Positions 1,179 to 64,000 of a stretch of 64,000 nucleotides of DNA are shown here, piece by piece. The stretch comes from an uncultured archaeon. GTDB lineage: Archaea > Asgardarchaeota > Lokiarchaeia > Sigyniarchaeales > SOKP01. The notes under the pieces are model-generated. The model worked only from the letters and a program-made list of their open reading frames with translations, did no database searches and had not been told where the DNA came from. The stretch is from contig CAZGJX010000005.1 in NCBI GenBank assembly GCA_964525635.1, forward strand, positions 1 to 64,000, written 5' to 3'. Within the stretch, counting starts at the first letter, position 1. Every line of letters begins with the position of its first letter. A program made the position numbers and the translations under genes.

Positions 1179-1193
1179 TACTTTACACCTCCA
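1176..1193 (-). promoter_or_regulatory. Embedded Shine-Dalgarno (GGAGGTG) and TAATG stop/start overlap
   Basis: Minus strand reads TGGAGGTGTAAAGTAATG. The same arrangement occurs at 6644-6661 (TGGAGGTGTTGACTAATG). Confidence 0.8.
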
Positions 1194-5329: not shown

Positions 5330-5494
5330 GATTTAACATCATATAATAGCTAAATTAATATATTTTTATTTAAATAAATAAAGATTAATAGATTCTAAAC
5401 TATATTTAAAAATTAATTAATTTAATACTAATTCAAGTATTAAAATTTTTACATAATAATTATATCAGATTTATGGTCTTAAGTAATAATAGAC

Positions 5495-5515
5495 AATAAA
5501 AATAAAAAAAAAAAA
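5495..5515 (-). terminator. Oligo-T terminator after unit 2
   Basis: A12 run (5504-5515) on +, about 20 nt after the stop of 5537..6646. Confidence 0.55.
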
Positions 5516-5536
5516 GATTAAAATAAATATAATTAA

Positions 5537-24234: not shown

Positions 24235-25764
24235 TCAATTTATTTTAAGGGAAGGAATGTCTTTTAAAGATTGAGGAATTTTTTTTATTTTATTTCTTGC
24301 TATAGTTAATTCTTTTAATTTTAGTAAATTTCCGAAGGAATCTGGGAGATCTTCTATACTGTTATCTCTTAGACCTAAGAATTCTAAATTTTTAATCTCT
24401 CCAATTGATTCTGGTATTTTTCTTAATAATTTATTTTCTTGTAAGCTGAGACGCTTTAAATTTTTCAATTTACCTATATTAGAAGGAATCTTATTGATTT
24501 TATTATATCCTAAAAATAATTGCTCTAGATTTATTAAATCTAATATAAATAATGGAAATATAGAAAGGTTATTATGACTTAAAGAAAGAAAATTTAAAGA
24601 AGTTAAATTTAAGAGATTTGGTAAGACTTCTAATTGATTATCATCTAGATGTAATTCTTTTAGATTGGGGAGGTTATTTATTGACTGAGGAATCTTGTTT
24701 AACTTATTCCTACTTAAATTGAGAATTTCGAGGGATTTTAAATTTCCGATGGTCTCAGGAATGTGGCTTATTTCGCATAAACTTAAATCGAGGTATTTTA
24801 ACTGTGTTAAGTCTCCAAGAGATTTAGGAATTGAAACTTGATACTTACCAGAAAAATGGCTTAATTTTGCATTCTGAAGGTGCACATCTAAAACCTGCAA
24901 TAACTTACATTTATTTATCCATTCAGGCACTTTAATAAGCTCATTCTCACTAGCATCAAGCTCTTTAAGACGGAAATGAAGTATTTCTTTAGGTAATTCA
25001 GTAAGATATAATTTGCTCAAATCAAGCTTTCCTTTATTTACCATTTTCGCGAGGACATCGATTTTCTCAGCTTTGGACAAGCGGAAAAATAGCTTCATTA
25101 ACCAGTGTCTAGTTAGATATAAGTCTTTATGTCTGAGTAACGGTTTTAAGTCGAACAGATGAAGGATAACAGGTCTATGGAGTTCAGGACTTAAAAGGTC
25201 CAGAGCTCCTTCATGTAGCAATACAGCAATCATATCTATGTCGTTTCCCTCAAAAAAGCGTAGTAGAAGGGTGTCTTTTTGTTCTTGAGTGAGGTAGTTA
25301 AGAAATTTGCGCACTAAAAGATATTTAACAACATTTTTGCTTCTACTTTCGAACCTTCTGACAATCTCTTGCGGGAATTTAATTTTGGCCTTAGGGTCGC
25401 CGACGTCAACGAGTTTTCTCAGGAGTGGGAAGGCGAGATTGCTGTGGAGGAGGCGAGTATCGTAATCATGTTCGGCCCACACTTGGAGATTTGAGCAGTG
25501 AGCCCAGAATTCAACTTGAGGGGGTATTTTAACGGTGGTCTCTTTTGGTCGTTCTAGAATTGAGTTGAGGTGCTCCTTCGCATCGTCGATGGAGTCAATT
25601 TTTTCGAATTCTTCAATCTTATTGGCGGGTATCGACAAAAGCAGGTATTTACACTGTAGAAACCTTTCATTATTTACAAATATGACTGTTTTTCCATCTC
25701 TGAGCTTTAAGGTGATAAATTCATTTATTTTAAATTCTGGCGAGGGTGGAATATATACAGTCAT
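24235..25764 (-). CDS. Leucine-rich repeat protein with Lokiarchaeia-type N-terminal domain
   Basis: About 10 LxxLxLxxNxL repeats in the C-terminal half. N-terminal EFKINEFITLKL...EFWAHCSNLQVW...DTRLLHSNLAFPLL domain. No signal peptide. Confidence 0.9.
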   Translation of the reverse strand: MTVYIPPSPEFKINEFITLKLRDGKTVIFVNNERFLQCKYLLLSIPANKIEEFEKIDSIDDAKEHLNSILERPKETTVKIPPQVEFWAHCSNLQVWAEHDYDTRLLHSNLAFPLLRKLVDVGDPKAKIKFPQEIVRRFESRSKNVVKYLLVRKFLNYLTQEQKDTLLLRFFEGNDIDMIAVLLHEGALDLLSPELHRPVILHLFDLKPLLRHKDLYLTRHWLMKLFFRLSKAEKIDVLAKMVNKGKLDLSKLYLTELPKEILHFRLKELDASENELIKVPEWINKCKLLQVLDVHLQNAKLSHFSGKYQVSIPKSLGDLTQLKYLDLSLCEISHIPETIGNLKSLEILNLSRNKLNKIPQSINNLPNLKELHLDDNQLEVLPNLLNLTSLNFLSLSHNNLSIFPLFILDLINLEQLFLGYNKINKIPSNIGKLKNLKRLSLQENKLLRKIPESIGEIKNLEFLGLRDNSIEDLPDSFGNLLKLKELTIARNKIKKIPQSLKDIPSLKIN

Positions 25765-25820
25765 TTCTATGATTACTATAAGTAATTTTCTTATTTAAAT
25801 TATTGGAGAGTGAGGAATTT

Positions 25821-28800
25821 TTAAATTCTGAATATGGAATTCCATGCTTCAGCAAACTCCTTTAGTAATGGTAGGGTGTACTCGATATTCCCATAAAATT
25901 GAGGATAAGCCACATGAATTTTTCTCAACTCTCTCAAGCTTTTTTGAAGGTCGCTAATTAGATCATCGTATCCTCCAATATATTCAATTCCCCGTGGAGT
26001 AGGTCCTTCATTACCGCCAAATATTTCCGTCTTTTTAAACTGTCCACCGTAATAATCGATAAGGGTTATGAACAGATCCTGTTCCTTATGTGGGACTATT
26101 GCGAAAGAATCTCCTTGAAGGAATAAGCTCATAATCAAGCTAAGATCAAAATCTTTAATAGTCAATTTGTTTGCATCGACTTGATTTTCTTGTATTGTAA
26201 AGACCATATGGGGATCCGCATCGAAACGGCTATTCCAATAGTATTTATCAAGGGTCCATCCAGAATCGCCGCTAAGTTTCCGAATTTGCTTATATGTTTT
26301 TTTATATTGCTCAATAATGTTGGTTAGCTTATTTGTATAACTTTTATCCTGAATAAATCCATCTTTACTTTTCTTTAAAGGCACTAAATATACAGTTCCA
26401 TGGGTGATAGCAGCTTTAGCGATTAATGTTTGGAATGCTTTAACAAAATTGATTATTTCTTCTTTTTGATAAGTTAATCGTGTATTGATGTTTTTATCTT
26501 GTTTTCCGATGGTTATTTTAATAAAGCTTGAGAGAAATTGACCATCATCATAAAATAGGCTTGCTTCATGTCTGAAATGCTCATCTGTTAGATGGAGTAC
26601 GAAGATATCATCCAACTGATTTGGATCAGGATCTAAGCTAAAGTCAAGAGGTGCTGGAAATCCTTTCTTATAAAGCAGAGCATTTTTAAATAGTTTTCTT
26701 ATCTCGGGTCTTTTCCTAATATTTAAGATATAATCAAGGCGATCTCGAACTATTGCTTCATAATATTTTTGATTATCTTTGAAGAATTTCTCTTCATTAT
26801 CCTCTTTATTAAATTTTTTACCTACCTGACTGTTCCAAATCGTCATAAGTTTATCCAGTATGTTCGCCATAGCGCTGCACTGTATATCTTCTATTGAGGT
26901 GTCTGGACTCCACTCTTTATATTGAGCTGCTATTGTCTCTATTAAATAGTCTGAATATTGATTGGCAGTAATTGGGTTGAATTCTCTATTCTTTTCTTCG
27001 GACGTCTCTAATAATTTATTATTTATGTCGGCAATTGAAGGATTGGAGGAATCCCAAGTACTCGAATCTAGAATATTCATTGCGTCTATATATTTAGTAT
27101 TTCCTGAGATTTCTATAGCGATTTTAACGCCTGCTATTACTGAACCTAAAAGATAATCTATATAATCATCCTTATATTTTGAATCTACATATTCCATGAG
27201 AAAGGAGAGCCTTTCTAGATTTTTTAAAATTAAATGATTTTTTCCTAAATTTTGATCTAAAATTTTTCTTTGAAGGGAGAGGGGGATAAGCACGCCATCC
27301 TTAAACATTGCGCTTCCTTCAAGCATTTTCAAATAGGTAATTCTTCCAAGTATTGCTACAACTAATCTATGTAACTTCTGAGCTTTTCCAAGAGTCTCAT
27401 CAGTCCATTCATCTGTAAAACGATTGTTTTCTTCAAAGACAAAATTGTCTATTAATTTATCCATTTCTTTAAACTCAGGAGAGTCCTTTTTATTTTCTTT
27501 ATACTTCTTTAATGTATCCCACATAATGGCCGTCCATTTTTTAACATCTTGCTTCCCATCAAACTTAAGATTCTCGATTAGGCGTTCTTTTCCTTTAAAA
27601 TCATTGAAAAACATATTATCTGAGAGTGTATTGTAAATCTCTTCATAATTCTGAGGATCTAAGTTGTATGCTACTGTTTTTATTATATGATCCAAACGTT
27701 GTTCAACAATGTCCTTCTTTATATTATTCCAATCAGCATATTGTTGGTTTGTTATGTCTGTTGCGAAAATCTTTATAGTAGTTGATGTATAGTGGTATAT
27801 ATATCTAAATATTCCATTTCGGAATGCGATTGATTCTTGGTTGCTTTTCATATTTTTTGGAAAATTCTTATTTACATATTTTACGATAGAATCTGATTTT
27901 CTTGGGAGACTTTTATATTTTTCGAACAACCATGTCCTGTAATCAAATTTGTGACCTTGCCATAAATACGTAGAAGTTAATTGGAATTCGAGGGAAATTG
28001 CGTTTTTAGTATTTCCAAATCCGCTATGTAAGAAAAGAATCGGTTGTATAGCACCCTCCATTCCCTCTTTATTCTTCTCTTTTTTCCATAGATTTTTATC
28101 TTCAAACCAATTTAGCCCTCTATCTTTGACATCTTTATCAATAATTAGCCATCTGCTTTCTAATACATTGGAGTTCTCATCAGTGACCATGAACATCTGC
28201 GATATTTGCAGGGTATCTTTCTCGTCATAATAAGCATAACCTAAATGCCAGTCTGAAATATCTTGTCCTTTTGCTGGAGTATATTGACCTTTTTCATTGA
28301 TTTCCATTCTTATAAATCGATTTATGATATCTTTTCCTTCTAGCTTAAAAGCCCATGCATAGGAACCATCCATCATTCCTGTTGTATCATCTATTTTAAT
28401 ATCATTTTTTCTATTAGTCACACTATTTTCTTTAATTTCTAAAGGTATTTCATCATATGGTAATTTTCTATTAGATGGATAATAAAATCCTAGCATATTA
28501 TTAGAGGTAATTCCATATCGAGTTGTCTTAGTTTCTTTATCAAAATATTCTCCATAATAATCACTCATAGAATTATCAGTAGCGAGAATTTCAAGAAGAT
28601 ATTTTTTTAATTCCTTTTTTTCATTCCTAAAATCTTTAATCAGAGGCTTTCCTACTTGTTTTTCTTGTATTTCATTAAAGGTTGTTTCTATTTCTTGCCA
28701 ATTTTTATCTTCCTCAATGAATTGTTTTAGTTTTAAGCGATAATTATTTTTGCTGTTGTCGTCATTAGATTTAATCTCTTCCCAATCTTTAGTAATTTCA

Positions 28801-31800
28801 TGAATTGTCTCAAAAGCCACTTGTTCAATGAAGAGGGATGGGATTGCTTTAAAAATTCTTTCACTAATAAACGATACTTCTTTACGACCTCCTAACTCCC
28901 CTGGAACTTTCATAAGAAAAAGTTTATTACCTATTACTTTACCAAATCCATCTAATGTTGTCAGACGCTCACCAGTCTCAGAATCAACAAAATCTTCGTC
29001 ACCAAAGAAGGCAGCATTGGCTATAACTCTAGCAGTAGTCTCTTTATTTATTTTTGTCTTATAAAGAGTAGAATAAAATATCATCCTGAATATATCATTA
29101 ATAATTCCCGTTTCACTGATATCTTTCCCTCCCCGACCATATAATCCTTTCCTAACCATTTTGGATGGAGATCCAATAATGATATACTTAGCTTCCTTAC
29201 CATCTCCTATGTCTATAATATGTAATCCTTTCATATCAACTATTTTAATACCCTTTATTACGAATGGTTTACTTTCTGAAAGAATTTGTCTTCCTTCAAG
29301 AGTAAAAGATTCTTCTTGAGTATCAAGAATAATAGGATTAATAATTGTATATCTTTTACTTAAAATTTCTTTTATATCATCGATATCTGAGTTATCCAGA
29401 TCAAAAGTACGAGCAAGTTCATCAAAAATTTCTTTCGGTAGGAGGAGTGACGTTGCTAAAGTTTCAAGGTTAGCACCTTCAACACCTATATATTGTCCTA
29501 AATCGACAAATTTATAAGCTTCTTTTAGTGTCTTGTAATCTTCAACCATTAATATTCCTGGTGGTAGGAATATTGATCCAATGAATGCCTGATAAAGTAA
29601 AAGATTGGGATCAAGCTTTTTATTTTCCGCATAAATATTTCCTAAATTATAATTTTCTTCGAGTAAACAAGAGAGGATTCTACTTAACCTGTAATATATT
29701 TCTCCTTGATTCTCTTTGGAGTTAGGATCGAGCTCATAAGTAGGAATTCCATCTTCAAAAGGTATACTATATAATTGAATAAATAACAATTTCATAATAT
29801 TTTTTCTTAATGCTATTTCAGCAGTTGTTTTTCCTGTTCTTGTATCATATTCCTTGGTAATTACATCAAAAATATACTGTGCCAATGCTGTATAAAATTT
29901 ATTTTCATTTTTCTTTTCATTTTCATTATCTGACTCAGCAAGACCTACATATAAAGTCTCAAGCACCGTTCTAACTCTTTTTTTAACATTTTCATAATTA
30001 AAGTCCTGAGTACCTTCAATGATTTTGTCTGCAAGTTGACCCAATTTGAGAGCAAATTCACCAAAATTCTCATAATAATTCTTTTCGTCATCTTTATGAT
30101 ATTTTTTTCTTGCTTTTTCAATAGAATCACTAAGTTCTTTAGTATTGAAGATCCTCTCAAGATTTCTAGGATTTCCCTTTGTAGGATCACTGGCTACAAA
30201 TCCCATGAATCTATCCAAGAAATACTCTATTGCTTCTATTTCTTCTATATTTTTCCCAAGGGGCTCAAGAGCTTCCCTTGTCTCCCTCTCTAGTTTTGTG
30301 CGAATAGATATCCCAGTTCCTATAGTCTCTTCTATATTCAATATATCTACACTTATACAACCCTCAATGTTCGCAAATCCGAAATAAGTCGCAATTTTAG
30401 AAAGTGTTGTAGTCTTATCGATAAATTTAGTATTTCCAAAAGAATCAGTGAATTCTAAATTAAGATCAATCTTCACTCCTTCTGCTTCAATTTGTATTTG
30501 TGCCAATGATAACTTATCCCTGAGTTTTTGAATTACAACTGCCTTTAATTCATTAATGGTATATTCTCCTTTTACAGGAATTTTTAACATTAAATCTTCT
30601 ATGTATATCTCCTGATATTCACCAGATTCCTCATCAATATCGGCTTCCCTATTCACTTCTATAACACTATTTTTTCCCTCTACCTTCTGTGAACTATCAA
30701 TAGATTCACTAATTTCCTTAATTTGTTTAATATTTTCTTGATTCATTTCTAATTTTTCCTTGATTGCCTGAGCTTTTAATAATTCTTCTATATTAGAAAG
30801 GGGGCTTTCTTTTTTGGACCTACCTTTCTCAGGCATGCCTTCCCTATCAATAGCTAAGACTGTACTAGAAGTTGCAGAATAGGCGGCAATTTTATTATTT
30901 ACGTTATTAAAAACTCTTACTTGTTGCTGTTCATCAGTCTCGGGTACAACAGGAATTGTAGGCAGTCTTTTCAAATCCTTAACAACACTATCATCAATTA
31001 ATACTCTAGTATTAAGCATTAAACCTGGCTTCTTAAGACTTGAAATAACGTCTTTAAATCTCATTCTGTTATTAAGGTGAATCTGGTATGTGTGCAATAA
31101 TTTCATATCAACATTATCCAGAAATTTCGAGTAGATATATTCTAAGGCAAGAGTCGAGCCTAAAGCTGAGAGACTCGGTATAAATAGGGTTAGCCCACTT
31201 GCAATAAAGAGAGCTGAAAGTTTCTTAATTGTTGGAACTGTCGCTTCCTTGCCGAAAATCTGTAGTTCGGAAATCATAGCTAAAATTGCTTCCCGTTTCT
31301 GTAGCATAACCTGTTCTTCTGATATACCGCTTGATTGCAGTACTACATTATTTAACCAATTTTGAAAGTCCTTATTAGATTTCATTGCAACAAAAATCTG
31401 AGCATTATAGGAAAGGGATTGCTGTGAGATTTGTGCTCCTGTACCGCTGGTAAGGAATCCAAAGAATTTGGTCTCTCTTGCACTTGTCGCAAATGTGCTT
31501 AACCAGAAGCCAAGCTCATCAGACCAGCCCATGGTTCTCGCTATACTCCCAACGACAGTCTCAATAACTCCATCTATGATGACTTCTTGCATAACTTCTG
31601 AGACTGTGCCTACAGCGGTTCTCACCGCCATCTGAGTTAATAGATTTTTTATAATTTGCTGTGATGTTACTCTCTGAATTTGAGATGCCATTATTGAATT
31701 CAAGGCCTGCATCGCCACTTGTTTTCCTGCCATTGCCGCGGCCTCTGTGTATGCCTGTTTTGCAACTCCGGTTAAGTATGAGCCCAAAATGATTAGCGGA

Positions 31801-34800
31801 GTGGATATAATAGTCGATTGTAAGGTGAGATCCTTTGTGTATTTCATTTCAGCGACCATTCCCGCTGACTGTGTTGCAAATGAATACTGATTAAAATAGT
31901 CCATAACCATATGAGAAGTTATCTGAGTTAAGGCAAGTTTTGCTGTCTCTTCTGTGGTGTCAGGGATTATCTTTTCGAATTCAATTTGAATTTTATAATA
32001 ATATGTACCTGATGTGTATGCGTTAAGTGTGATTAATTCATTAATAGGTGTCATGAAATATAGGTCTCCAGAATCTAATACATAATCAGAATCAGAAATC
32101 TCAAGAGGATCACCTATTTGTGTGCTATCTTTATATAAATACAATAAAATCTGTGATATAGGATATTCAAATCCGCCGATTTTAGAGGCTAATGGAATTT
32201 TGTCTTTATAATCCATAGTAATTTCCTCTTTTGAGAGCTCCTGAGTAGTAATTCCCCTAGTATTTTCTATTTGGGGAAGGGCAACCTCTATTGTAAGATA
32301 TCCTGTCGTTAAATCATATTTCCTCAATTGGTCATAATGATCTTGGTCGACCACCAAAGGTTTATAAAGAGCTTCATTAAATCCTCCTTCTATATCTGAG
32401 AAAATATAGGTTGGAGCACCATCGATACAGGTTGGGATCACCGAACTAAGTGTTCCATTCGTCTCCCTAGAGATGGCATAGCTCACATATCCAAGCGTAT
32501 TTTCCTGATATTGTGTATATAAATCTGTAGAACCTCCACTTTGGTGGTACCTATAGAATGGGATGTCATTATATGTATAGAGCTCACTTGAGACTAAAAA
32601 GAAATCTAAATTCTTATGATCAAAAGGTAATTGCTCGTCTGGGGGAGTAAAATCTATAAGCCCTCCTGTTAGTAGAAAACTGGCAAGATTAGAATATACA
32701 CTTACAGCCCTATCTCCATTTGGAGGGGACGCTATAACATGGGCAGTATAATCATTTCCAGGATTGCCCCCCACCACTCTTGTATAATAAGCCCCTGTAT
32801 GCCCTGTCAGCGCTGCTGGAAGGCTCTCACCCCAGAAATCGTCCCAGTAGTCTTTCTCATTAAGAGATTTGGGACTTCTTCTATTTACATTCTCAGGATA
32901 GAAAGTGTCTGCGGTCTGAACTGAGGTCATTTCATGCATTTTCAAATCCATAAAATATTTAGTAAGCAGGGAATACACAGCAAAATAGGCAGCATGAGCT
33001 AAACTTGTTGCTGTGCCATATGATAAAATAGTAATTAATGAGCTTGCAGCAGAAGCGATTAACGTCGACAGTACCTGCTCTCCTACATCTCCTAAAAATT
33101 GAGCATCATATTCTTTCCAGATTCTACTATATTCTCGCTTCCTGGCTTCATAGAATAATTGAGGATATTTCGAGATTTGACTGCTCCTATTAACCAATTT
33201 TCTCACTTCAAAGATATGGTCTTTTGCAACCAGTCCATCGTCTATATTTACTGGAAAAAGTAATCTCTCATTATCTAATCTTTCATATTTATATCTCCAG
33301 TTCGAGCCATATATTTTATGACCTTCCTTTGAAAGAATGTCGGTATAATCATCTCTAAGAGTCTCATATGGGCTTTCTACCTGTTTCCTAATATACGGAC
33401 AGAAGCTATATTGCGTGGGAGTCCCGTAAATATATCCAACTGAAATTACGTTATACTTGCCATCACAGTTACTATCATTTTCAACAATATAGACAACATC
33501 ATATAAGCCATCACTGTTGGAGTCTACATAAAAGTAGCTACCGGATGTCTTGGCGCCCCAACTATTTTTAAATGAGTCCTTGTCAGAGGTGTAATATACC
33601 CGTCCATCCGGAGGGGTTATAAACACTCCCGTAATAGCAAGTTCAACATCTCCCACAGCATTCGAACCTTTATTGTAGTCGTAATAGGTGCTAAATCTAT
33701 TGGGAAGGACAAGGGTAATTTCTGTCTCATAGAAATTGACGATCTCATCACTTCCATCCTCATTTAAAATTTGAATTGAATCGTATTTTATTGGGATTGC
33801 ATCTTTTCCATAATCTTGCCAAGTCTCTTGTGTATAACCATTTATAGTTATAGGGGTATAAATAGCATTTGCTACGTTAAGAGAGACTTCGGATTCGACA
33901 CCTAATTCAAGATCCCTTATTATACGCTTTCCTTCTCTCGCTAAATTAAAAGACATTCCAATTTGTCCATCATCAAAGAGATCGCGATAACTTCTAATTG
34001 AGATTACTTCTCCTTTCTCAAATTCCTGAACTGTAATAACCTCTGACTTCACATCTTCCTTAAGAGATTCTACTCCCAATTGAGTATATTTTCTATAGGT
34101 TGCCTGTAAAGTAGATTCTAATCCAGGATAAAGATAGGTAAATCCATCTGGGTAATCAAAATCATAGTTATCTAATTTTTCTTCAGTTAAGATTTCATTA
34201 AATATTGCATCTTCTCCACCTCCTCCGCACAATCGATCCCAAGAGGCAACCGTATAATCTACGATGTAGTTTTTCACATTCCTTGGCTTACCAGCAATTA
34301 TTGCTCTCTCTTCCTTATAATTCTTTACGTGAGATATTGTAGTCTCGCTTTCATAGGTTATTTTCTTATCTGCATATGAATCGCGGTCCTCATCAACAGA
34401 AATCATATAATATTTTGAGGTAATTTCTCCGAAAATCTGAGTAGAATCCTGCATAAACTTTTGAGCATAATAATCCACATCAGGGAGAAAGATTCTGGCT
34501 ACTGTCTCGAGCAAGGCAAGAGTGTTAAATATTCCGAATCCAAGCCCTAAGATTGTGGCTAAATTAAATTCATAGTCAGCAAATAAGCTATCGTCGATAT
34601 CGAACCATTGCGTTCTCATTACCTTTCCTTGCGAAATATTGAAGAAAGAAGATGTAAGTGTTGAGTCTTGAATAATGGTATGCCAAATAATACTATTTTC
34701 TGTAGCATTGAGAAATCCGTATTTTGTGATATCAAATACGCCATCTCTATCAATATCGATAATTTGTTTATAATCTGGATTTTGATCCATATCTAAATCG

Positions 34801-37800
34801 CATTCCAAAATTATATTATATGGATCGTAATAGATTTGAAAATCTTCAAATAAGTTTGATGTATCAAATAACTCTGCTGTAAGATCTGACTCTGCCCGTG
34901 AATAATTAAGAGCTGTAAATGAGGTATAATCAGAAACAATTGCATCATGATCTTGAGAAAAAAGGATATATCCATCATTATATGCATATTCAAAAGAGAT
35001 GGATAAGTACTCATAGAAAGAATCTTCTATATTGGAAAGGTAATCACTTCTAAATTGTTCTGATAATGTTAATAGCGTAAAACTTGATACAGGTCCTGTT
35101 GTATAATTAAAACTTATAGTAATATAATCATAATCAAAAAGAGGCGTACCTCCTAAAGTTATAATCGTGAATGTATTATCAATCTTATCTAATGTAAAAT
35201 AATAATTGCTATAGTCGTTTCTAATTTCTGACCTAGTAAGGTTTGGAAAGACGCCAACTACATTATAAAGTTCAAAATTTGTGAAATTAGTAGCAAATGG
35301 CTGCTCAACATTAAATTTATGAATGTAAGTATCGGAAGACCTATCATATACAGTAAACGATTCTTGATAGAATTGTTCTATATTATAATCATAAGAATCA
35401 CTATTATCAATTACTTCTCCTAAAAACATTTCATATCTTGGAGTTAATGGAAATCCACTCTGACTATAATATATTTCAAGGGAGTTAGCATCTATATTTT
35501 CGTAATTAAGAGCAATTGGAACTTTCCATGAAGTGTTTGTACAGTAATTAACGTAAAACGTACTGTTAGGATCAACCATGTGGGGTAATGCAATTTCAGA
35601 TCCTAGAAAATCTTGATATCTATCAAATTCATCATTCCAAGTAAGCGATCTATTAGCATCGTGATAAATTAGCTGGTCATTTACTCCCAACGCTCCCGCT
35701 GAATAATAAATATAATTATCATCAATAATATGAATATAATTTAACCATATATCTTGAGTATCGCTATCACCAAATAATAATGGTTCATTTTCAAACGCAA
35801 GAGTATAGGAATCATCAGTTGGATTATCACCTGCTGTGAATTCCTCTGTCTCTGTAAATCTCCAGATTCTTGTATCAAAAGAACTACTTCCAGAAGTACC
35901 TTCAATGATTTCGACAATTTCTATTTGATCAATTGTTATTTCATATGAAAGATGAGGTGCCGAAATTAGTAAATGAGAAAATTCAACCATGCTGTCAATA
36001 GCATGTGCCTCAAATTCGGTAAGATTTAATTCAAATCTGACTTCTTTAAATGAGTTGGTGATCTCTGTATCAAATGGCGTTATTGGAAGTTCAATGTGAT
36101 AATAATAATCGTCGGTAAACTGCTCATAAGCAGTGCTGCTTGATGCGTTCACAAGCATTATCTCAGCTTCATAGTTAAGATCGTCATAAAGTGCATGTTT
36201 CTTGTTGAAATAGGTCTTCTCTATTCCGATAGAGACAGAGTGCTCCAAGGGAGTCTCATATCGTATGATAAATACATCCCCATCGGCAAATTCCAAATGA
36301 TTGGTTGAATTGAAAGGATCAATAAATATGCTCGGAATTTCTAGAATATATACATCTTGCCCTAAGACATCTTTTTCAACCCTATATACATAGTTGATGT
36401 CCTCTGGTAGGGCAATATAGTTCAGCTCAATATCCCATAAATAGACAGATTCCACCTGCCCCTCATTTAAGGGAGCTGAGAGCTCAAATTCCATATATGA
36501 GACTCCTTCACGCTCTAAAAGATCCTCTGTGGACCATACTGCATAGTCTATAGTCGATACTTTTGTATTAGAAGGATGATACGGTCCTTGGTCTGTAAAT
36601 TGGGGAATAATAGATATTTTCTGAAGGGTATTTACACTAATAGGTAAATTAACCTCAATATTGGAATCCCACATCACAAGATCTTCAATTGAGATTTCCT
36701 GTGTATATCCCTCAATAATACCTGTAGTATCATTTAATATAATAATAATTGAGTCTAATGCATTATAATTCTCAATTAGAGCATTGAAAACAAGGGAGGA
36801 GTATTCTCCTCGATGAATGCTCTCAAGAAGATCAGGGCTGAACCATGATAATTCACCTGCTAAATCAAATACAAGAGTCTCACCCCTCTCTAGATGAGCT
36901 CCTATCTGAGTCGCATAACAGCTTACATTATTGTAAGAGCTCTCACCATAGTCGGCAAACCAATGTGCTCCAAGATTAGGTATCGTATCAAGAGGCTCAC
37001 CATCCATAACAGTCCAATAATTGAGATCAAGTGGTCTCTCATTATCCAATGGTGAGTAAGAAAATTTATATGAATTAAATGCTTGATCGTTAAGGGATGG
37101 AATGAATGAAATCCAGAACTCGTATATGTTATTAATTGCAACAATATCATTGCCATCGTCTAGCAATGTTATTGTATGAGAGGTTGTATCTATTGTATAA
37201 TGGCTTTCATCAAGAATTTGTAAAAGTCCTTTCTCGTTATAGTAATGGATTCTAACAGAGGGAGTTCCATCTACCTCCTCATATACATCTATAGATTCAT
37301 TTAATCCTATTGGAATATAATCATATGTATATTGAGGGTTATTATAATTAAATTCGTGCTTTTCATCATAATAATTCCTCTCATTTAGACGATAACTTAA
37401 ATATAACATATAAGTACTGTCAAGTGATAATCCGTATTCAAACGGTGTAATGATTGAGCCTCCTGATAGTTTTCTGTATCTCTCTCTATAGTTAATCAAT
37501 GGATTGTCTGAAACATCTGTAGCAGCATCATCGAGCAGTTGTTCGAAGGAATGAGACCAAGGATAAATAACTGTTAAGAAATGCTTTCTATCAAGGAGAG
37601 TTGGAGCTTGTTTGTAATAATATTGGATAGTGATCTGAGAGCCAGGAGTAATATTTGTCTCATTAAGGATGATGTTATTATCTACTATGCCAACTACATA
37701 TTTATCAAATTCAGCATCAATATTTGAAGTATAAGGACCATTAACACCTATCGTAATTGTGATATAGTAATCGCTAAATTGAGAATCTAACCTATTGTAA

Positions 37801-40800
37801 ACAAATGGTGTCTGGGAGAGTCTATATTTTGTCTGCCTTGATTCATATTTAATATGAATAATTGATGTAGAATCTTCAAGAAGCTCAAATCCATCAGGGA
37901 TATCGTGCTTAAATGCTGTATAATTGAGATAATATCTCCAAGTAGTTGTATTATCTTCTATTATATATTTATTAGCAGTGCCAATGGTATACCTCTGAAT
38001 TGTGCCTGTATTTTCTCCATCCCAGATTTGACAACCTACATGTGTAAAAATATCGATACTAAACTGGTCTGATGGAACAACATTTAATATTGAAAATCCT
38101 TCAAGCTCATTTGAATTTGAATCCTCATAATCTACATAAATCTTACTTCTTAAAGTTGGTTGAAAAGTAAAACTATCTTGGGTGCTGAAAATATAATCTT
38201 GAGATACAGTTCCCCAATCCAGTGAATAATAGGAGACCTCAAAAGACTCACCAAAATTAAGGTCTGGATGGAGTGTAAATTCATTTATGCTTTTATATGA
38301 ATAATCCCAAACAAGTCGGGTAATAAGTGGATCTTCTGGACTTTCTCTTAAATAATAATCAATTCCTTCGTTAAATAACGCATATGCCCAGAAATCCAAC
38401 ATAATTAAATTATCTATAGCAGAATTATTCACCTCTTCTAGGGAAATTGTAAATAAAAGATATTTAGAACCATTATTTAGATATTGAACTGAGTAATTAC
38501 CTTCGGGTATAATATTCTCAGATGGAATAAATGAATTACTCTCAAGATTGGTATTTACATTGCAATATGTACCATCGGTATACTCACCTGTTGGGTAGCC
38601 TTGAATAGAGAGATCATATTGATAAGGCTCTCCAATCTGGCGGATTGAGGAGATTGCTACATCATCAAGTAATCGTAAGCCAAATGTAGTATTAGTATGA
38701 ATATGAGGTCCAAAGAGGTCCAATACCTCTGATTGCGATACCACATTCCTTGCCAAATCAAATAATTGATGGTATAACACTGTCCCTCTTACATCAACCT
38801 CCCTTGTAGATAGGAACTGGTCTGTAAGAATGATAGTGTCGTTCCATGAGGTTGCTTTCATATATCCATTGTTATTTGTAAGAGAAGAGGTATAATCGGC
38901 TTTATATAAATCATCAGCATATCTTATTCTGCAATCTTTTTCATGAGAGGTCTGACCTGAGACTTCTGTCTGAGCTCCTGAATAGAGTGATAAGTATCCT
39001 TCTTCATAGCGTGTCTCTTCTAAATTGTAAGAGTTAAACAAAAGTCCTAAGTTTGTAATCATATTAAAGTCGTCATCAGAGATAGTTAGAGTCTCTTGTG
39101 TTCCTATGTAATTAAATTCATAATTATTTAGAGATACAAGATCAGCATAATCCATGTCTTCCACGGCTATGGTTATTTGAGAATTCTCCCGTAAATTAAA
39201 TGGTGAGGCTGGAAGATATGGATACAATTCGCTATTACGAAGGGGCTCAGATAGAATTTGATAATAGTGATTTGTAGATACAACAGATTGCACGTCCATA
39301 TTACCGAGCCGATCCTTTGGCATAAAATCATACATTTCCACCAAATGTGTATCGCATATATATTCCCAAGTATCAAGCAATATATATGATAAATACTCAA
39401 CACTTTCTCCTTCTTGCGACAATACAATGAATACGTTGGTATTTCCAATACCAAAGGCATTATAGAGTGCATCCAAATTAATTGATTTTGTAACTCGATA
39501 AATACCATTATCTAATTGAGAACTTATTTCATCATAATTCAGCGAAATATTGAGACTATCATGATAATATCCATTTGTCTGGAAATTATCAAAATAAAAA
39601 TCTATTATTAAAGAATTATCTCCTTGAAGTGCCTTTAGTTGATCGACTATAATTTGATCAAAGACAAATGAGACATTTACCTCTGGAGAAGCCAACAAGG
39701 GAAGATCGTATAACTGTAGGACCGTCTCATTTTCATCAAGGCCAATATAGATAACAGAATCATCAAGTTCAACTGAAGGAAATGGTTCGCTAAGAGGGTT
39801 AATAATGCTATTCATAATATCCTCATCATTGTAAATTAGACGAATTGAGTTGCTATATCTCCTATCTTGCTTCTGGAATCCATATCCTAACTCATAGGAA
39901 GTCTTAAGTCCGTAAATAATCGTAAAGTCCTGAGCTGGGGCATTTGTAAAGTTAACTATTGGATGTCCATTTGTATCTATGTCTATTGAAACATCTCCGC
40001 CTGAAAGAGTTTCTAACTCATCTTTGTTGTAAATAATGACATCATCAATATTTAGTGTCTGAAGAGTATAGTCAAGGGAGTATTCCATACTCCCAGTTCC
40101 AGAAGCACATTCCTGTTTGTATTGCATGTACATGGGTGATCTGGCATCTTCACTACTAGGAAGGAAATTATCTATAAATTTAAATGAGATTTCTGTTGAA
40201 TTAATACTGTTAGATTGTGGTCCAAGCGATATTTTCCCAAAATAATTATTCCAATTATTGGTCTCAAAATTAAATTCAAATGTATATATAACTTTAAAAT
40301 CACTTTGATTATCTGGTACCATATAATCGTTATTAAATGTAATCATTGATTGTTCTAAAAGCGCATTTCCTTCGTTAGCAGTCCAATCAACTTCTTTTAC
40401 AAATTCATATTCCTCCTTATTTTGTAATCCTTGAATGGATATTGGGATTATTTCTACCAAACCAAGCAACTCAAGAAGATTGCTATTGGAATCAATAGAA
40501 TAGGATTCTACTTCAGGATCATAGGTATGCTTGACCTCAATTCCATATTCTACATCATCAGATATTCCTCCTAATGTGAGAAGACCTGACTGACTTGAGA
40601 TCACATTAGGATCGATCTCTAAAGGAAATTCTGTTGATTCAAACTGATCTTTAAAGAAAGACCATGTTGTATTTGGATTAGAGGAGCTAGGATTCTTTTC
40701 TACTCTTAGGTCTAATAAAAATATATCTATATTTCTATTTTCATTATAAATTGTATCTAACGTAGTCTTTTCTATATTAAACGTAATATTTACAATATTA

Positions 40801-55800: not shown

Positions 55801-58800
55801 CCAATTTCATTCCAATCATCATCATAGTTAATAACTGTTCTACCACTTCCGTTATACCAAGCATATGAGACCCACCAAGAGTTCTCGTCTCTTCCAAATT
55901 GTCTTGCCAATAGGAAATAATTCGGATTCATTAAATCACATACTACAATACCATTGCTAAAATCATTATCGAATCTATAAATATAACTTTCCCATTGATT
56001 ATTAATACCAACACACAAAATCCACCAGTAATTATTATAGTAAGAAATCCCCCATGCGGTATTAGCTCCTATTGATAATTGATATTGATCGCCAGTTGGA
56101 GTCCAATCATAATGATATTTTGTAACATGATCATATGAGAGAACATACCAATACCTATCAACAAGTATTATATCATCCCCATCAATATCCCAACTATCTA
56201 ATACATTTGAAAAATCTCTATTGAATTTACACACTCTACCGCTTCCTTGATATCCCCCAATTATGTACCAATATCCTTTATGAAAATAATATGAATTAAT
56301 TGCATCAATATAAGGAGCGGTCTTGGAAGTCTGACCTAAGCGATCCCAAGTGGTTTGGATTAAAGTAATATTTTCTGTTAGATAATTACTCATTTGTGGA
56401 GATTCTTTATAAAATTCGTAATTTACATTATTATAAAGAATCCAAGAACTCCCATCCTCTTCAAAATCCTCTTCATATATATTCTCTCCCATTGCAGGAT
56501 AAAATGTGAGATAGGATTCTATATCGTCTCCATAATATTGAACAGTGTAATTATATAGATCATCACTTTCTAAAGATCCTGATATACCATCACCATTATT
56601 TCCAAAAGGATATCTATAACCTCCATTATAGTTTATACCACCAGAACCGAGCATGTCATTATAATACATAACGGAATCAAGATTAGTTGATTGCTCCTGA
56701 TAGGTATACCCTAAATTAAGCCCATTATTTTGAGTAGTATAGCTATCTGTAATTAATGAGGTGTCTAATATATTATTTTCTTGCATCTCATCATGAAAAG
56801 AATAAATAATGTTAATATCTGCTGATATATGAGAAAATGCATTTTCAGGAGTAGTTAAAAAGTCCGAATAGGTAATTTCATTTGTCTTTGTATCTCCTAT
56901 TTGAGATATCATATCCTTATATGCTTGGAAATCTGCTTGATCTTCTATTCTTTTATAGAATTGATGCTCAAGCTTGGTAATTAATAATTGCCCTGAAAGA
57001 GGATAATCGATCTCAATACCAGGACAAAGAATTTCTGGATCAGCGTCTTCATATTCCCATATTGGATCACCAGTAAGATATGTAGAAGGTTCAAAATTAA
57101 GATAAGCTTTCCAAACCTGTTGAGAACAATCATAAAATACTACTAGACTATTTTCATTACCGCCATAGTCTAAATATCCTCCATCCTCGTTCACAGGATC
57201 TTCAAATGTGAAGGAAAGCTCATCATTTAATTTAAATGTAATATTTCCTCCAACATCGTCATAAGGTATATTAAATCTAAGCTCTGCTCTATAGGCATCA
57301 TGACTCGTAAATTGATTACTGATCTTTTCAGCTATGATTGAGTCTATATCAATGTAAAATGATGCTAAATTTGTTACTAAAAGTTTTAATTTGAGCCTAT
57401 AATTTTGACGAGAAGAATCATATAATCTTATAAAATCATTTTTATTTATGGTAATTTTAAATGTATCATCATCGATAATTTGGACTTGAGTAGGGATATA
57501 TTCACCTGTAAAATCTCTATAAAAGATCTGAAGATTATTTTCAAGTAATAGAGGCGAATATGCAAACACTGTTATTTCCAGCTTATCTAAATCATTAATT
57601 CCATCTATTGGTTCTGTCTCTATGTTGAATTCAATTTCATGTTCCTGTTTTTGTTGGGAATAAATTGTATAAAGATCACCATCAATATCCTGTAAAGAGA
57701 CAGGAGAGAAAAGGTACCCATCCCCAGAGACTATTTGAATAGTATTTTCAAGGAATCTAATGTACCCTGTTCTAACTTCTGATTGCACTTCGGGAGTATT
57801 GGAGATCCCTTCATTCATTTCAAACCCGCTTCTTCCTTCTAGTATTAATCCATTTTCTGTCATGTCAATATTATCGCTGAGAGATTGTGTACTTAAATAT
57901 GTATCAAAGTCCTCATAATTCAAATAATTAGTATTTGTTCGCGTAAATGTCTTAAAATCGCCGACGGTGATGTATTCATATGGTAGGATAGATAATTTTT
58001 CTGTACAAACTTGGATTCGAAATTCTTGGTTAAGATTCAAGTAATCTCTGTAGAATGTAGATGGAGTTACGGTTTCAAATATTCCATATGGATTTGGAAA
58101 ACGAGTATATTGAGTAGTCTTAAATCCATTGACTAAATCTAAGACAATGTTATTAAGCTGATATTTGTTTGATAACTCAGTAGAATTTTGATAAATAGAT
58201 ATTTGAGATTTATCGGCTTGTAAGACATTTTTCTGATATAATCTAGAAGAATAATCATTATCAAGAAAATTTCCACCATTTTCAACCAAAGGATCAAATT
58301 CAAAGTGTTCATACTCATCAATAAAATATTGGTTAATACCGAACGATACTGTCTGCATACTATCTATACTTGCTGTACCCCAACCAGGAGTAAACTTGTC
58401 TATAGATGTTTGATATCCCGAGTTGAAAGCCCAGAAATATTCATAATCATATGATGATGTGATGTCTAGAGCTTCCCACCTATCCTCTGCATAATTGTAA
58501 ATCAAGACAGAGAGAGGGTATTCCTCTGTAAATGCTGAAGAGAGAATAGAGGCATCAAAAGCAATTTCAATTGCTTTAATTCCATTTTTATCAACTGTTG
58601 GTATTTTGTTTACAAATTCAAATCCATATGCTTGATTAAGATTGGCTAAAAGAGCGCATATATATTCCTCTCTATTAAGAAGTGCTAATTCTATGTCCTG
58701 GATAGTCGCGTCCTCAAATCTCTCTAAAAATACTCCATCAGTTAGTGCTCCTTGTGATTCAATTCCACCATAGGGTGAATTATATAGAGAAAAGTTAATC

Positions 58801-61800
58801 ATCTGGTTTTGAACAGATATTTCTTGTTCGAAAAAATTATATATACCACTTGATGAATGAATATTATCATAATACATTGAGGAGAAATTATAGGTGTCAC
58901 CTAAGATCGGATCGCTTATCCATACACTATCGATATAATTACCTTCATACTTACCATCAAATTCATCTTCAGCTAAATCGAGTCGAGAATATTCTTTCCC
59001 TTCTAGAGTTTCTGAGAGTATCCCAGAGTCATAGGAATCTCCATAATATATGAGGTTATTCTGGAGTTCTGACATTGAATAATATTCTTCTCCCCAATAT
59101 TGATTATTCCAACCGATTCTTGTGGAGACTGGAATATCTAATAAATAGCCACTTCCAGAGATAACCGATTGTCTCCTATAAGTATTACAATCTTCTAGTA
59201 AATGCAGACTATAATGATTAGACGTACCATAATTGTTTATCCAAGCGAGATCTAATTCATTTTCCCCGTAGAACTGAGCTGATGCTGATGTGTCTGTCCG
59301 ATCAGGTCTTCCCTGAGCCCTATTAAAAGACGGATCTATACTCGTTATTTCCTCACTGTAATAACTTAAAAATGAATAATCAACTTTTATATTTTCAAGA
59401 TTACTCCATATTATACCTAAATATGGATTTTTTAGGTCTAAGTAGATTGAAAATTTATCTGCTAATGTATAAAAGTCAGGAGATAAATAATACCATTTAT
59501 TATTTTCCATAAATGAAATTTTATTAATCTTATCAATTTGATAAGGTCCAAGCGTTAATTTATAACCGGTTCTAAATTGTTCCAACTCTTGACGTGTCTT
59601 AATAGTTGATGTGAAGCAAATTGGACTTGAAATTGTGTATTTATCCTTTAACGTTTCAATATTAATTTCAAATAATCCTGTGTGTGATGCCACAATCAAC
59701 TTCTCTGAATCTTCTTCACTAAGTGCTAATAGATCAAGAATCTGGAACTTTTCTTCTTCAAAACCAGAGATATCTACTTTTATCCAATCATTCGCTTCTT
59801 GACTATATTTTACCGAGTAGACAGTATCCATCTTACCAAGTAATTGCCTTGATAATCCAAGTAGTATTCTTTTTTGACTCTTTTCGATTACTGATATTTT
59901 ACCCAAGATAGAGTTAACAATTACATTTTGAGGATTTAGATTATTATAATCAAAGTGTATTAGTTGAGAATAATAGCTTCCTTCTATTAATCCTCCTATT
60001 AATATAGATTTATCTTGCTCAGATATTAATGACTCAACAATTTTTATAGAACTTGGAATGAACCCAATAGGTGCTTGTTGCCGTACTTTTTTAATTGCAT
60101 TGAAGCCGTCATCAATTTGGTATTTACAAAATGATTGTTTTCCCGTCTCGTCTTCTTGAACCGTAATTAATACTGTCTTTCCTATATTTCCATCATAATA
60201 TAGATCAAACAATAAATTCTTATATTCGCTATTAGAAGTTATATTTAAAAATGAATTCCAATTATCATTATAAAATGAAAAGACATTCATTTGATCGGGT
60301 GAAAGAATAATTAGTTCAGCGATCCCATCTCTATTAATATCAAATAATTTGAAAATTTGATTGTATGAAGAATTAAAAAGACCTTCAGCACTAAGAACAT
60401 CATCTTTTATCCATCCATTTGTCTCGTTAAACTTATAGATAATTAGATCAACATAGAGATCATTTTTGACCAAAATAATTGGCTGAAATTCACCATTAGG
60501 ATTAAACACGCCCCAACTACCCCATAAATTATTTGAGGTTATAGGAGTCACCTGCACGGGAATATAGGAATAATTAAATTCCCTAATTGAATTATAAAAT
60601 TCTGGATCTTTGTTGAAATCCCAAGTTATAGTATAAGAGCCTGCGTCTATAATCGTTGGCTCTGTTGTTATTGGAATCCATTTGTTAGTAAGGACATTAT
60701 AGTATTGCGAACATACATCCCAGAATTCTTCAGAATCAAAGTAATTACTTATTTGTCCAGCTATGATTTGTGAATTAATTATCTCAATTTCATCAAATTC
60801 AAACACATCTCCAAAGACAAGATTTGTAATTAATTCTACCTGAGCAAAATCATATAATACTATATTAGATATTTCAGTAAGATAATTTCCTGCTTTATCT
60901 AATATGAGTACTTTTATATAATTAAAATTGGGAATTTGCTCAAGTAAATCTCCATCCCAGTAATAATTCCACTGATCAATATCACCTGAATAATATGCTC
61001 TCCCTATATTTTCCCAAGAATTGCCATCAATAGAACAATAAAGAAGAATTCTATTAATATCACTCTGTCCTAATGGATTCTTATCTACTAATGAACTTTT
61101 TATTGTAATTGTACTATCAGAATAGGTTTCTGAACCAAAAAGTACAATTCCTGCGTTAGTTGAGTTTGTACCTAAATTCCATTGAAAAAGAGATCCTGCT
61201 TGTTTTAATATGGCAGGATCATATATCCCTTTAAATTTCTGTGTTACTATTGTGTTTCCTAATTGAGCCCCTCCAGTTGCAAGCTCCATTCCATCTGTTA
61301 TTTCAAACCATAGTAAAAAAGATTCACCTTCCGTAATTGTTGGCAGGTAATTTCTAATATCGAAAGACATCAACCTCCATTCCCTACTGTCTGAATCGAA
61401 AGTTAAAGGAATTTTATTTGAAGTTGCTTCATAAAAAGTGGCATAAATCGAGTCTGAGTTTTTAGATGATAATAAATGGCGTGATGATTCTCCAATTTTC
61501 AGTATTAATTTTTCACAATCTAAAATAACTTCAAAATCATTAATTATATATCCTCCAATTGTTATAGAGGTTATTGATTTAATTAAAGAAATATTATAAT
61601 TAACTGGATCTGAAAACCCAATAATTTCATATTCAAGCTTTCCATAATCAAGTTCACCTGAAATTACGAGATTGTGTGATGCAAGGGTTTTTGTTAGATT
61701 TAGACGAACACTTTCAACACCATATTGATAGTAAAGGGGCGTGCTTATCTGCGCCCAATCAAACCCATCAAATGCGGCATCGAATGCCTCAATTGATAAA

Positions 61801-64000: not shown

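Follow-up and report, generated by a model that had tools for sequence, protein, structure and literature searches.

Among archaea, proteins of more than 10,000 amino acids (aa) are most frequent in the Asgard group (West-Roberts et al., bioRxiv 10.1101/2023.11.21.568195), and huge archaeal proteins dominated by the Laminin_G_3 (LamG) domain have been recorded with the comment 'function not understood' ('The neglected giants', PMC11573180). A gene of this kind lies on the minus strand of the 64,000-nucleotide stretch analysed here (hereafter the window; positions 1-64,000 of contig CAZGJX010000005.1, assembly GCA_964525635.1), which comes from an uncultured Asgard archaeon of the Lokiarchaeia with a genome of 4.45 Mb in 245 contigs and a G+C content of 26.8%. 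The contig, C5 in the following, runs on past the window to 73,542 bp. Like the proteins of the published survey (PMC11573180), the C5 product is archaeal, exceeds 5,000 aa and has Laminin_G_3 as its only Pfam domain, with one copy near the N-terminus. The surveys (PMC11573180; 10.1101/2023.11.21.568195) only count such proteins, without the membrane anchor, the helical hairpin module, the tails free of N-glycosylation sequons (N-x-S/T), the tail classes or the partner genes that are described below, and no paper on the module, the sequon-free tails or the partner genes of this family was found in the literature.

Two other groups of giant proteins can be compared with the C5 protein. The Ca2+-stabilised adhesins (MpIBP of Marinomonas with 1.5 MDa, SiiE of Salmonella and the LapA-type proteins) are likewise megadalton, acidic chains of Ig-like beta-sandwich domains that project from the cell. 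However, they consist of near-identical tandem repeats, are exported by type I secretion and carry RTX and C-terminal signals, whereas the domains of the C5 protein are highly divergent, the anchoring is by N-terminal transmembrane (TM) helices and there is a sequon-free tail with a partner gene. No RTX or BIg repeats were matched by Pfam in the giant, and internal repetition is almost absent. The Aloposon giants Otus and Ephialtes of Heimdallarchaeum (Wu et al. 2022, PMC8813620) are also giant genes of Asgard archaea, but they are tandem genes of 3,000-6,000 aa on tRNA-integrating mobile elements with a MinD/ParA ATPase. There is no such context at C5, and it is from this context that the distinction is drawn.

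In its organization the locus resembles the bacterial polymorphic toxin and contact-dependent inhibition systems, such as CdiA-CT/CdiI, Rhs and MafB (Zhang et al. 2012, PMC3482391), which share with it an N-terminal anchor, a long stalk, a conserved pre-tail region and a C-terminus that differs abruptly between paralogues, as well as a neighbouring gene without export signal and orphan cassettes (here on contigs C4 and C96 and, in a related genome, as a second cassette in G053). Polymorphic toxin systems are rare in archaea, and Imm-LRR (LRR, leucine-rich repeat) is one of their recognised immunity classes (PMC3482391). The C5 locus departs from them in that the host is archaeal, a multi-pass membrane anchor is part of the same polypeptide, the tails of 620-1,900 aa fall into two superfamilies, and the partner gene, in most cases convergent, comes from a large general family. 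In Pfam scans of the full-length protein no TPS, FHA, RHS, PAAR, VENN or known toxin domain appeared, and the hallmarks of CdiA/CdiB (TPS domain, FHA repeats, VENN/PT motif and the CdiB transporter) were not found by Pfam in either the protein or its neighbours.

One gene interrupted by an in-frame TGA

The giant open reading frame (ORF) extends over 25821-63998 on the minus strand, as do all parts of the gene located below. It has 12,725 sense codons from stop to stop, followed by a TAA at 25821-25823, and 12,721 codons counted from the ATG at 63986, which bears out the figure of at least 12,721 stop-free codons given in the initial annotation. The other five frames of the same stretch contain 827-1,751 stops each and their longest open runs are 95-112 codons. 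Given that a stop is expected about every 12 codons at this composition, the chance of the giant frame staying open would be about 10^-461. The description of the sequence as non-repetitive also holds, since the gene contains no direct DNA repeats of at least 30 bp and a self-BLAST of the protein with chopped queries returned only a few LamG-like copies and one duplication of about 330 aa.

The frame had been described as still open at the window edge. This is not the case, as a TGA at 63999-64001, which is bisected by the end of the window, closes it. Extension beyond the window for the true start showed that a second ORF of 1,540 codons (C5:64002-68621, outside the window) abuts the TGA in the same frame and provides the N-terminus. 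The read-through gene is about 42.8 kb long and encodes 14,258 aa counted from the first Met. Its single in-frame stop, at codon 1,541, parts the anchor ORF from the giant ORF (aa positions below are those of the read-through protein). The computed mass is 1.65 MDa if the stop is read through and 1.47 MDa for the part downstream of the TGA alone. The first Met of the giant ORF (63986) has neither a signal peptide nor a TM segment, in agreement with the initial annotation, and the signal peptide is missing because the N-terminus sits in the upstream ORF and not because of an unusual mode of export. The first ATG of the upstream ORF is preceded by an AT-rich leader with a TTTAAATA box.

Comparison with homologues indicated that the two ORFs are parts of one gene. 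Open frames at eight homologous loci, two of them paralogues from this genome and the other six from four related genomes, aligned without gaps over the full length of a 600-aa query across the TGA. Their residues at the TGA column are N, R, E, N, P, G, G and K, with no insertion or deletion. An AlphaFold2 model of aa 1,241-1,840, which was built with this alignment, had a mean pLDDT of 83, with values of 90-95 around the stop, and placed the TGA in the turn between strands 290-295 and 303-312 of a beta-sandwich. In the paralogue on contig C63 and in the relatives G114:C21 (14,473 aa, beginning with Met and a multi-TM anchor) and G075:C7 (12,745 aa) the anchor and the stalk are encoded by single uninterrupted ORFs, and both G114 and G075 are colinear with C5 over its aa 608-12,390, save for an insertion of about 1,900 aa that is specific to C5. 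The presence of an ATG four codons after the stop could speak for two independent genes, one for a membrane protein of 1,532 aa and the other for a protein of 12,721 aa, and a chimeric misassembly could likewise bring such ORFs together. Given the continuous alignment in eight homologues, the folded domain at the stop, the single ORFs in C63, G114 and G075, the colinearity from end to end and the lack of repeats of at least 30 bp, both explanations were excluded, and we regard them as hardly credible. The misassembly of several genes, which had been considered in the initial annotation, is thus ruled out by the colinearity with two independent giants. The giant ORF and the upstream ORF are therefore very probably one gene of about 14,260 codons with one nonsense codon. 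DNA pattern scans of genome and metagenome contigs, with the stop wildcarded, gave no match to an independent assembly of the junction. For the upstream product an exact look-up gave no record, and a search among longer proteins gave only a partial relative of 41% identity.

The TGA itself is an ordinary stop in this genome, where it ends 252 of 1,930 long ORFs. Downstream of it, 6,397 possible single-base changes would make a stop, and if this part were untranslated the chance that the frame stays open would be 0.12 at a neutral divergence of 0.1% and 0.014 at 0.2%, so that any inactivation must be extremely recent. The TGA would accordingly represent a nonsense mutation of very recent date, a minority allele or a base or consensus error, leaky read-through being less likely. 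A fresh pseudogene, in which the TGA is genuine and fixed and the 12,725 downstream codons are no longer translated, is a possibility to be taken seriously, though we do not consider it probable. It would be compatible with the normal use of TGA as a stop here, with a lesion that splits a folded domain, with a downstream ORF that lacks an export signal, and with the internal stops of other family fragments (a TAA in the tip gene of C96 and several other stop-bearing matches). However, the low probability of the frame staying open allows only an extremely recent event, and a consensus error in the metagenome-assembled genome (MAG) or a minority allele fits equally well.

Programmed recoding of the UGA, by which selenocysteine insertion or regulated read-through would give the full-length protein at a low level on purpose, was also considered. 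A tRNA-Sec is encoded in the genome, the base at +4 is a C, which is the rarest after genuine TGA stops here (7%), and a weak hairpin covers the site (z about -2). However, the homologues have ordinary, variable residues at this column and never Cys, 4% of shuffled sequences fold as well as the hairpin, no other family member has a stop at this position, and no selenocysteine insertion sequence (SECIS) or other Rfam match was found near the TGA or in the 3' region even at E values up to 10, although Rfam may lack an archaeal model. Recoding is therefore regarded as very improbable, and selenocysteine as such was rejected, given that the column is never Cys and that nothing SECIS-like was matched. 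A mini-intron of the tRNA type at the TGA was rejected as well, since there is no extra residue in comparison with the eight homologues and the local fold has no 3-nt bulges or bulge-helix-bulge. The tRNA-Sec gene (anticodon TCA) is located at G000:C50:9907-9999 in this genome; the organism can decode UGA as selenocysteine, though not at the C5 junction.

Anchor, stalk and sequon-free tail

The first 530 aa of the read-through protein are very basic (pI 10.1) and aa 531-887 contain about eight hydrophobic helices. From these properties the two segments are predicted to be a cytoplasmic N-terminus and a multi-pass membrane anchor, respectively. There are 11 Lys/Arg in the loop before the last anchor helix and 11 Asp/Glu in the 60 residues after it. 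By the positive-inside rule this charge bias would place all downstream sequence outside the cell.

The sequence after the anchor is acidic and forms a stalk of about 11,300 aa composed of many divergent beta-sandwich/LamG domains. The part inside the window (aa 1,542-12,223; 31953-63998) has a pI of 4.2 and carries sequons at the expected rate. Laminin_G_3 was matched at aa 1,222-1,388 in the acidic sequence after the anchor, at aa 5,821-5,975 (50697-51161; E=1.7e-41 for the piece, in two stretches) and at aa 7,504-7,661 (45639-46112; E=2e-15), and no other Pfam domain was found. The C5-specific insertion (about 1,900 aa, aa ~5,773-7,687; 45561-51305), which is absent from the G075 and G114 orthologues, carries extra LamG-like copies and an internal repeat at aa 6,807-7,496 that corresponds to the duplication of about 330 aa. 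The best structural matches to a modelled 600-aa segment of the stalk included 4p99, 5irb, 2yn5 and 6xi3, which belong to the giant adhesins MpIBP, SiiE and LapA-type. The last beta domain of the stalk (aa ~12,089-12,229; 31935-32357) was confidently modelled and is the last place with sequons in the family. Taken together, the giant is in all likelihood a membrane-anchored surface fibre with an extracellular stalk, in line with the large surface structure maintained by selection that the initial annotation had proposed: the stalk lies outside, it has Laminin_G_3 domains and a string of beta-sandwiches, and the family frames of relatives are uninterrupted over 11,000-20,619 aa. Conservation at 11,000-20,600 aa across genera indicated that the giant family is clearly important to these cells. 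In another giant paralogue of this genome, a dockerin-like double repeat (D-x-N-x-D-G-x-V...D-A-L) sits inside a LamG domain at the start of a 6,440-aa open frame that follows a run of N (G000:C21, ~25,560-26,200).

The stalk is followed by a conserved pre-tail module (aa 12,224-12,579; 30885-31952) with a long helical hairpin and amphipathic or hydrophobic helices. An acidic ladder, E-x3-E-x3-D-x3-E at aa 12,342-12,354, and an S-x-R-E motif at aa 12,380-12,383 (together 31473-31598) are invariant in 24 sequences, and a moderately hydrophobic helix at aa 12,468-12,489 (31155-31220) lies towards the end of the module. In a model of the module very long helices were predicted at model residues 345-421 and 432-484. 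Similarity to the nearest relatives (C4, G001:C27 and G001:C8) is 54-56% identity up to aa ~12,577 and undetectable beyond. The tail after this breakpoint, about 1,690 aa long, evolves fast, is K/E-rich and has a cytoplasm-like composition. A second boundary at aa ~13,498 is set by the cassette on contig C96 and divides the tail into a proximal part (aa 12,580-13,497; 28131-30884), which is K/E-rich, sequon-free and matches no family searched, and a tip (aa 13,498-14,266; 25824-28130), an orphan sequence that is also sequon-free and has been copied in the C96 cassette at 48-53% identity. A candidate beta-grasp-looking stretch was seen around aa 12,680-12,770 of the proximal tail.

The C5 protein contains 129 sequons and the last of these is at aa 12,055. 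The observed number was 120 in the stalk (123 expected) and 4 at the N-terminus (4.6 expected), while none was found in the tail, where 12.6-13.7 were expected. In the six other tails of this genome the observed and expected numbers were 0/6.9, 1/7.3, 0/15.7, 1/18.2, 0/13.8 and 0/6.9, and tails of the relatives G001 and G075 had 0, 1 and 1 sequons against 21.2, 19.8 and 8.4 expected. Twenty additional tails from several genera had none each, compared to about 151 expected in total. When 30 tails (about 36,000 residues) were pooled, 2 sequons were observed against 279 ± 17 expected. The control motifs S/T-x-N, D-x-S/T, Q-x-S/T, N-S/T and N-x-x-S/T occurred in the tails at ratios of 0.88-0.99, and the rare alternative sequon N-x-C was found once (7.6 expected). 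As a genomic control, ORFs without hydrophobic segments, used as a proxy for cytoplasmic proteins, had a sequon ratio of 0.90, compared to 0.01 in the tails. In the family alignment the sequons cease where the long helix starts, with 3 in about 9,700 aligned residues beyond. Just ahead of this sequon-free zone, 9 of 24 family members share a sequon at position 297 of the alignment of the last beta domain (window ~32,090-32,100); it is not present in C5, and where it occurs it may be a glycosylation site that is kept for functional reasons.

A gene for the oligosaccharyltransferase STT3/AglB is present in the genome. Given that we know of no process except N-glycosylation that reads N-x-S/T(C), the avoidance suggests that the C-terminal region of ~2,000 aa that begins with the hairpin encounters the oligosaccharyltransferase, and that glycosylation at any point in it is harmful. 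We infer that this region is exported past the oligosaccharyltransferase yet kept glycan-free. An exported and yet unglycosylated part of this kind points to transfer across a second membrane.

These results also bear on two other views of the protein. In the first it would be a giant receptor or tether, of which the stalk is an extracellular loop, the hairpin and the hydrophobic helices re-cross the membrane of the producer and a cytoplasmic tail signals through LRR adaptors, with nothing being delivered. The cytoplasm-like, K/E-rich composition of the tail would agree with this, and so would the moderately hydrophobic helices found at aa 11,352-12,489. However, a cytoplasmic tail would face no selection against N-x-S/T, as illustrated by the ratio in the cytoplasmic proxies, and the Kyte-Doolittle values of these segments (1.6-1.8) are well under those of the N-terminal TM helices of the anchor (2.2-3.1). 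In the second the fibre would be purely adhesive or structural, in the manner of a giant adhesin or halomucin, with a tail that needs a glycan-free surface and an LRR neighbour that is incidental. The string of beta-sandwiches that matches MpIBP, SiiE and LapA-type adhesins and the lectin-type LamG domains would both fit, and cryo-tomography of Lokiarchaeum has shown cells with many complex surface proteins and no S-layer (PMC9834061). Nevertheless, only 2 sequons in about 36,000 tail residues means that a glycan would be harmful anywhere in the tail, unlike in folded extracellular domains, and the stalk tolerates sequons. Considering also the neighbouring genes described below, the receptor is regarded as unlikely and the purely adhesive fibre as more unlikely still.

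Tail classes, partner genes and possible delivery

The tails of the family fall into two classes. Those of the long class, to which C5 belongs, measure 1,650-1,900 aa and those of the short class 620-1,100 aa, and identities within a class are 21-30%. Against a profile built from the remaining long-class tips the C5 tip scored no higher than shuffled sequence, and the match of the C5 tail to a full-length profile of the long tails was due entirely to composition bias. The sole stretch of the C5 tail that resembles another tail is aa 13,331-13,606, which matches C129. Profiles of the long tails, the short tails and the module found nothing among PDB sequences, and a word search with the C5 tail in a collection of 5.8 billion proteins gave no match. 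Weak domain matches were obtained in the tips of some relatives (PRTase-CE, 4.8e-5; GIY-YIG, 0.035; Peptidase_S24, 1e-4). The GIY-YIG match, in the tip of locus L055 (G086:C48; Pfam E=0.035), has a canonical-looking motif. Most short-class tails have an R-H-H-(F) ... T-x4-H block with a spacing like that of His-Me/HNH fingers, with no match to Pfam HNH families, none of which recurred in 26-27 tails; the C5 tail is without the RHH...H motif.

Downstream of the giant ORF, at a distance of 56 nt and in the same orientation, is a gene for a 509-aa LRR protein (24235-25764, minus strand) that consists of an N-terminal domain of about 230 aa followed by LRRs and has no signal peptide. Export signals are absent from the LRR proteins, whose sequon counts are normal. 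Homologues with the shared N-terminal domain lie next to 10 of 13 long tails and next to none of the 16 short ones, and in this genome the adjacency was found at 4 of 7 tail ends. A homologous small basic ORF containing Cys follows 8 of 16 short tails and none of the 13 long ones, and three tails have arrays of small paralogues behind them. One short-class tail of this genome is directly followed by three such paralogues in tandem (G000:C147:4231-6043; 153-177 aa, 35-44% identical), whose homologues follow tails in G053 and G083. In G001 a Ras/Roc GTPase gene adjoins the LRR gene.

Parts of the giant also occur as stand-alone genes. On contig C96 (C96:11552-15459) a gene that begins with a Met of its own corresponds to C5 aa 13,498-14,264 at 48-53% identity; it has one internal TAA and 0 sequons, compared to 6.5 expected, and 62 nt after it lies an LRR gene that is the closest paralogue of the one at C5, with 59% identity over 497 aa. 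Given that the tip and the LRR gene have the same order and spacing in C96, the last ~770 aa of C5 are a tip that is co-inherited with the LRR gene. On contig C4 a gene of 2,278 aa (C4:6837-13670) with its own ATG and a TFB gene upstream encodes only the module and a long tail with 1 sequon against 18.2 expected, the tail being 45% identical over 1,697 aa to that of G001:C8, and it has a convergent LRR partner (the neighbourhood spans G000:C4:6837-14984). In the relative L053 (G053:C185:34800-54000) small paralogous ORFs form an array behind a giant of 12,291 aa, and 5 kb further downstream there is a second ORF with a module and a tail (1,283 aa), the whole being an array of orphan cassettes.

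The neighbouring genes can be set against the two other views. An LRR protein without export signal, which belongs to a large conserved family spread over the genome, is what a general adaptor of a receptor would look like, and the Ras/Roc GTPase beside the LRR gene in G001 and the lack of a toxin domain in the tails would agree with signalling. The sharp homology breakpoints and the stand-alone cassettes of tip and LRR gene would, on the other hand, be unexpected for a signalling tail. As to a purely adhesive fibre with an incidental LRR neighbour, the adjacency at 4 of 7 tail ends here and at 10 of 13 long tails and the co-duplication in C96 are far from chance and speak against it.

The arrangement of the C5 protein might be read as that of a fibre for contact-dependent delivery. 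The lack of sequons would provide a separate line of reasoning for an end that is exported and has to stay threadable. The anchor would keep the fibre in the membrane of the producer and the stalk would extend outward for hundreds of nanometres. The hairpin module and the tail would pass the oligosaccharyltransferase and stay glycan-free for later threading through another membrane or channel, and contact with a neighbouring cell would lead to delivery of the tail into it, in the manner of bacterial polymorphic toxin and contact-dependent inhibition (CDI) systems. The cytoplasmic LRR protein would be the cognate binder of the tip, as an immunity factor or as a holding chaperone. CdiA retains its C-terminal half in the producer until receptor binding, and with a similar arrest a later export would be compatible with both the cytoplasm-like tail and an LRR binder in the cytoplasm.

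A number of observations weigh against delivery. Searches with the C5 tail in Pfam (E up to 1), NCBIfam, PDB sequences and the ESM Atlas detected neither a toxin nor an enzyme domain, and no domain family recurs across 27 tails. The tails are 620-1,900 aa long, far above the typical size of a toxin domain, and form just two divergent superfamilies rather than many unrelated ones. The LRR gene is convergent in most relatives and not co-transcribed. The family of its N-terminal domain does not serve the giants exclusively: it has 24 copies here, is represented in 103 of the 121 genomes from the order, contains numerous invariant residues and lacks a Pfam model. The general nature of this family tempers the link between the LRR genes and the giants, although the adjacency is far above chance. 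The model of the module is of low confidence (pLDDT 55 overall) and gave only generic helix matches (Z below 7) against 48,161 PDB chains. Finally, the C5 copy bears a stop codon and might be inactive here.

Because of the missing toxin domain in the C5 tail, the very large size of the tails and the general LRR family, we put contact-dependent delivery at slightly less than an even chance. The giant gene together with a delivery fibre is the best overall explanation, and we consider it about equally likely to be right or wrong. In its most specific form, a membrane-anchored fibre of 1.5-2 MDa in Asgard archaea of this family would thread cargo of 600-1,900 aa into neighbours by an acidic helical-hairpin translocator unrelated to bacterial secretion systems, which is at present a rather doubtful proposal. 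As regards the role in partner attachment or antagonism suggested in the initial annotation, the support is circumstantial and comes from the sequon-free exchangeable tails, the putatively cognate neighbours and the orphan cassettes.

Asgard archaea lack an S-layer, and their cells are closely associated with those of other microbes as physical partners. If delivery occurs, it would constitute a contact-dependent protein-delivery or antagonism system of archaeal design and a new class of archaeal cell-to-cell protein transfer, in a lineage thought to have partnered the mitochondrial ancestor. Sequon avoidance would then be a genomic signature of cargo that is exported and then re-imported, which could be used to find delivered cargo in other glycosylating prokaryotes.

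Family distribution and other features of the window

Further pieces of the family were found in this genome on contigs C63, C21, C9, C91, C129, C4, C85 and C147. Together with C5 there are nine ORFs or fragments with 42,404 codons, corresponding to 2.9% of the genome. Among the 121 genomes of the order, 34 had the C-terminal module, and 32 of the 34 belonged to the 101 that were sampled from the window's own family. By profile over 201 genomes of the phylum, the module was present in 14/40 genomes of the same family and in 1/160 elsewhere, and the sole match outside the family was fragmentary and contained four stops. When 1.84 billion representative proteins were searched exhaustively by profile, 256 clusters were returned, of which 213 were below 1e-10. 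The only named database relative was an NCBI entry, 'LamG-like jellyroll fold domain-containing protein, partial', with 41% identity. We are thus confident that the giants are confined almost entirely to one family of Lokiarchaeia-type Asgard archaea. The locus also illustrates several problems of annotation, namely that a gene can be broken by one stop and by the edge of the window, that standard tools call the relatives 'LamG-like, partial' and that MAGs from short reads fragment the paralogues.

Four eukaryote-type genes of the actin family were found in the genome (best E=9e-133). Within the window, a small GTPase of 337 aa is encoded at 12347-13360 on the minus strand, with Gtr1/RagA as best Pfam match (E=1e-23), and represents a signature protein of eukaryote type; it is adjoined by genes for ThiI, a metallophosphoesterase and a hexapeptide transferase. 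The actins and the GTPase are in keeping with the assignment to the Asgard archaea. At 81-10737, also on the minus strand, there are two tandem pairs, each of a protein of about 1,370 aa and then an ORF of about 367 aa. The large protein at 1178-5329 matches Laminin_G_3 and CarboxypepD_reg and the small ORFs (81-1178 and 5537-6646) have no Pfam match, and the two pairs look like a duplicated two-gene module for surface proteins.

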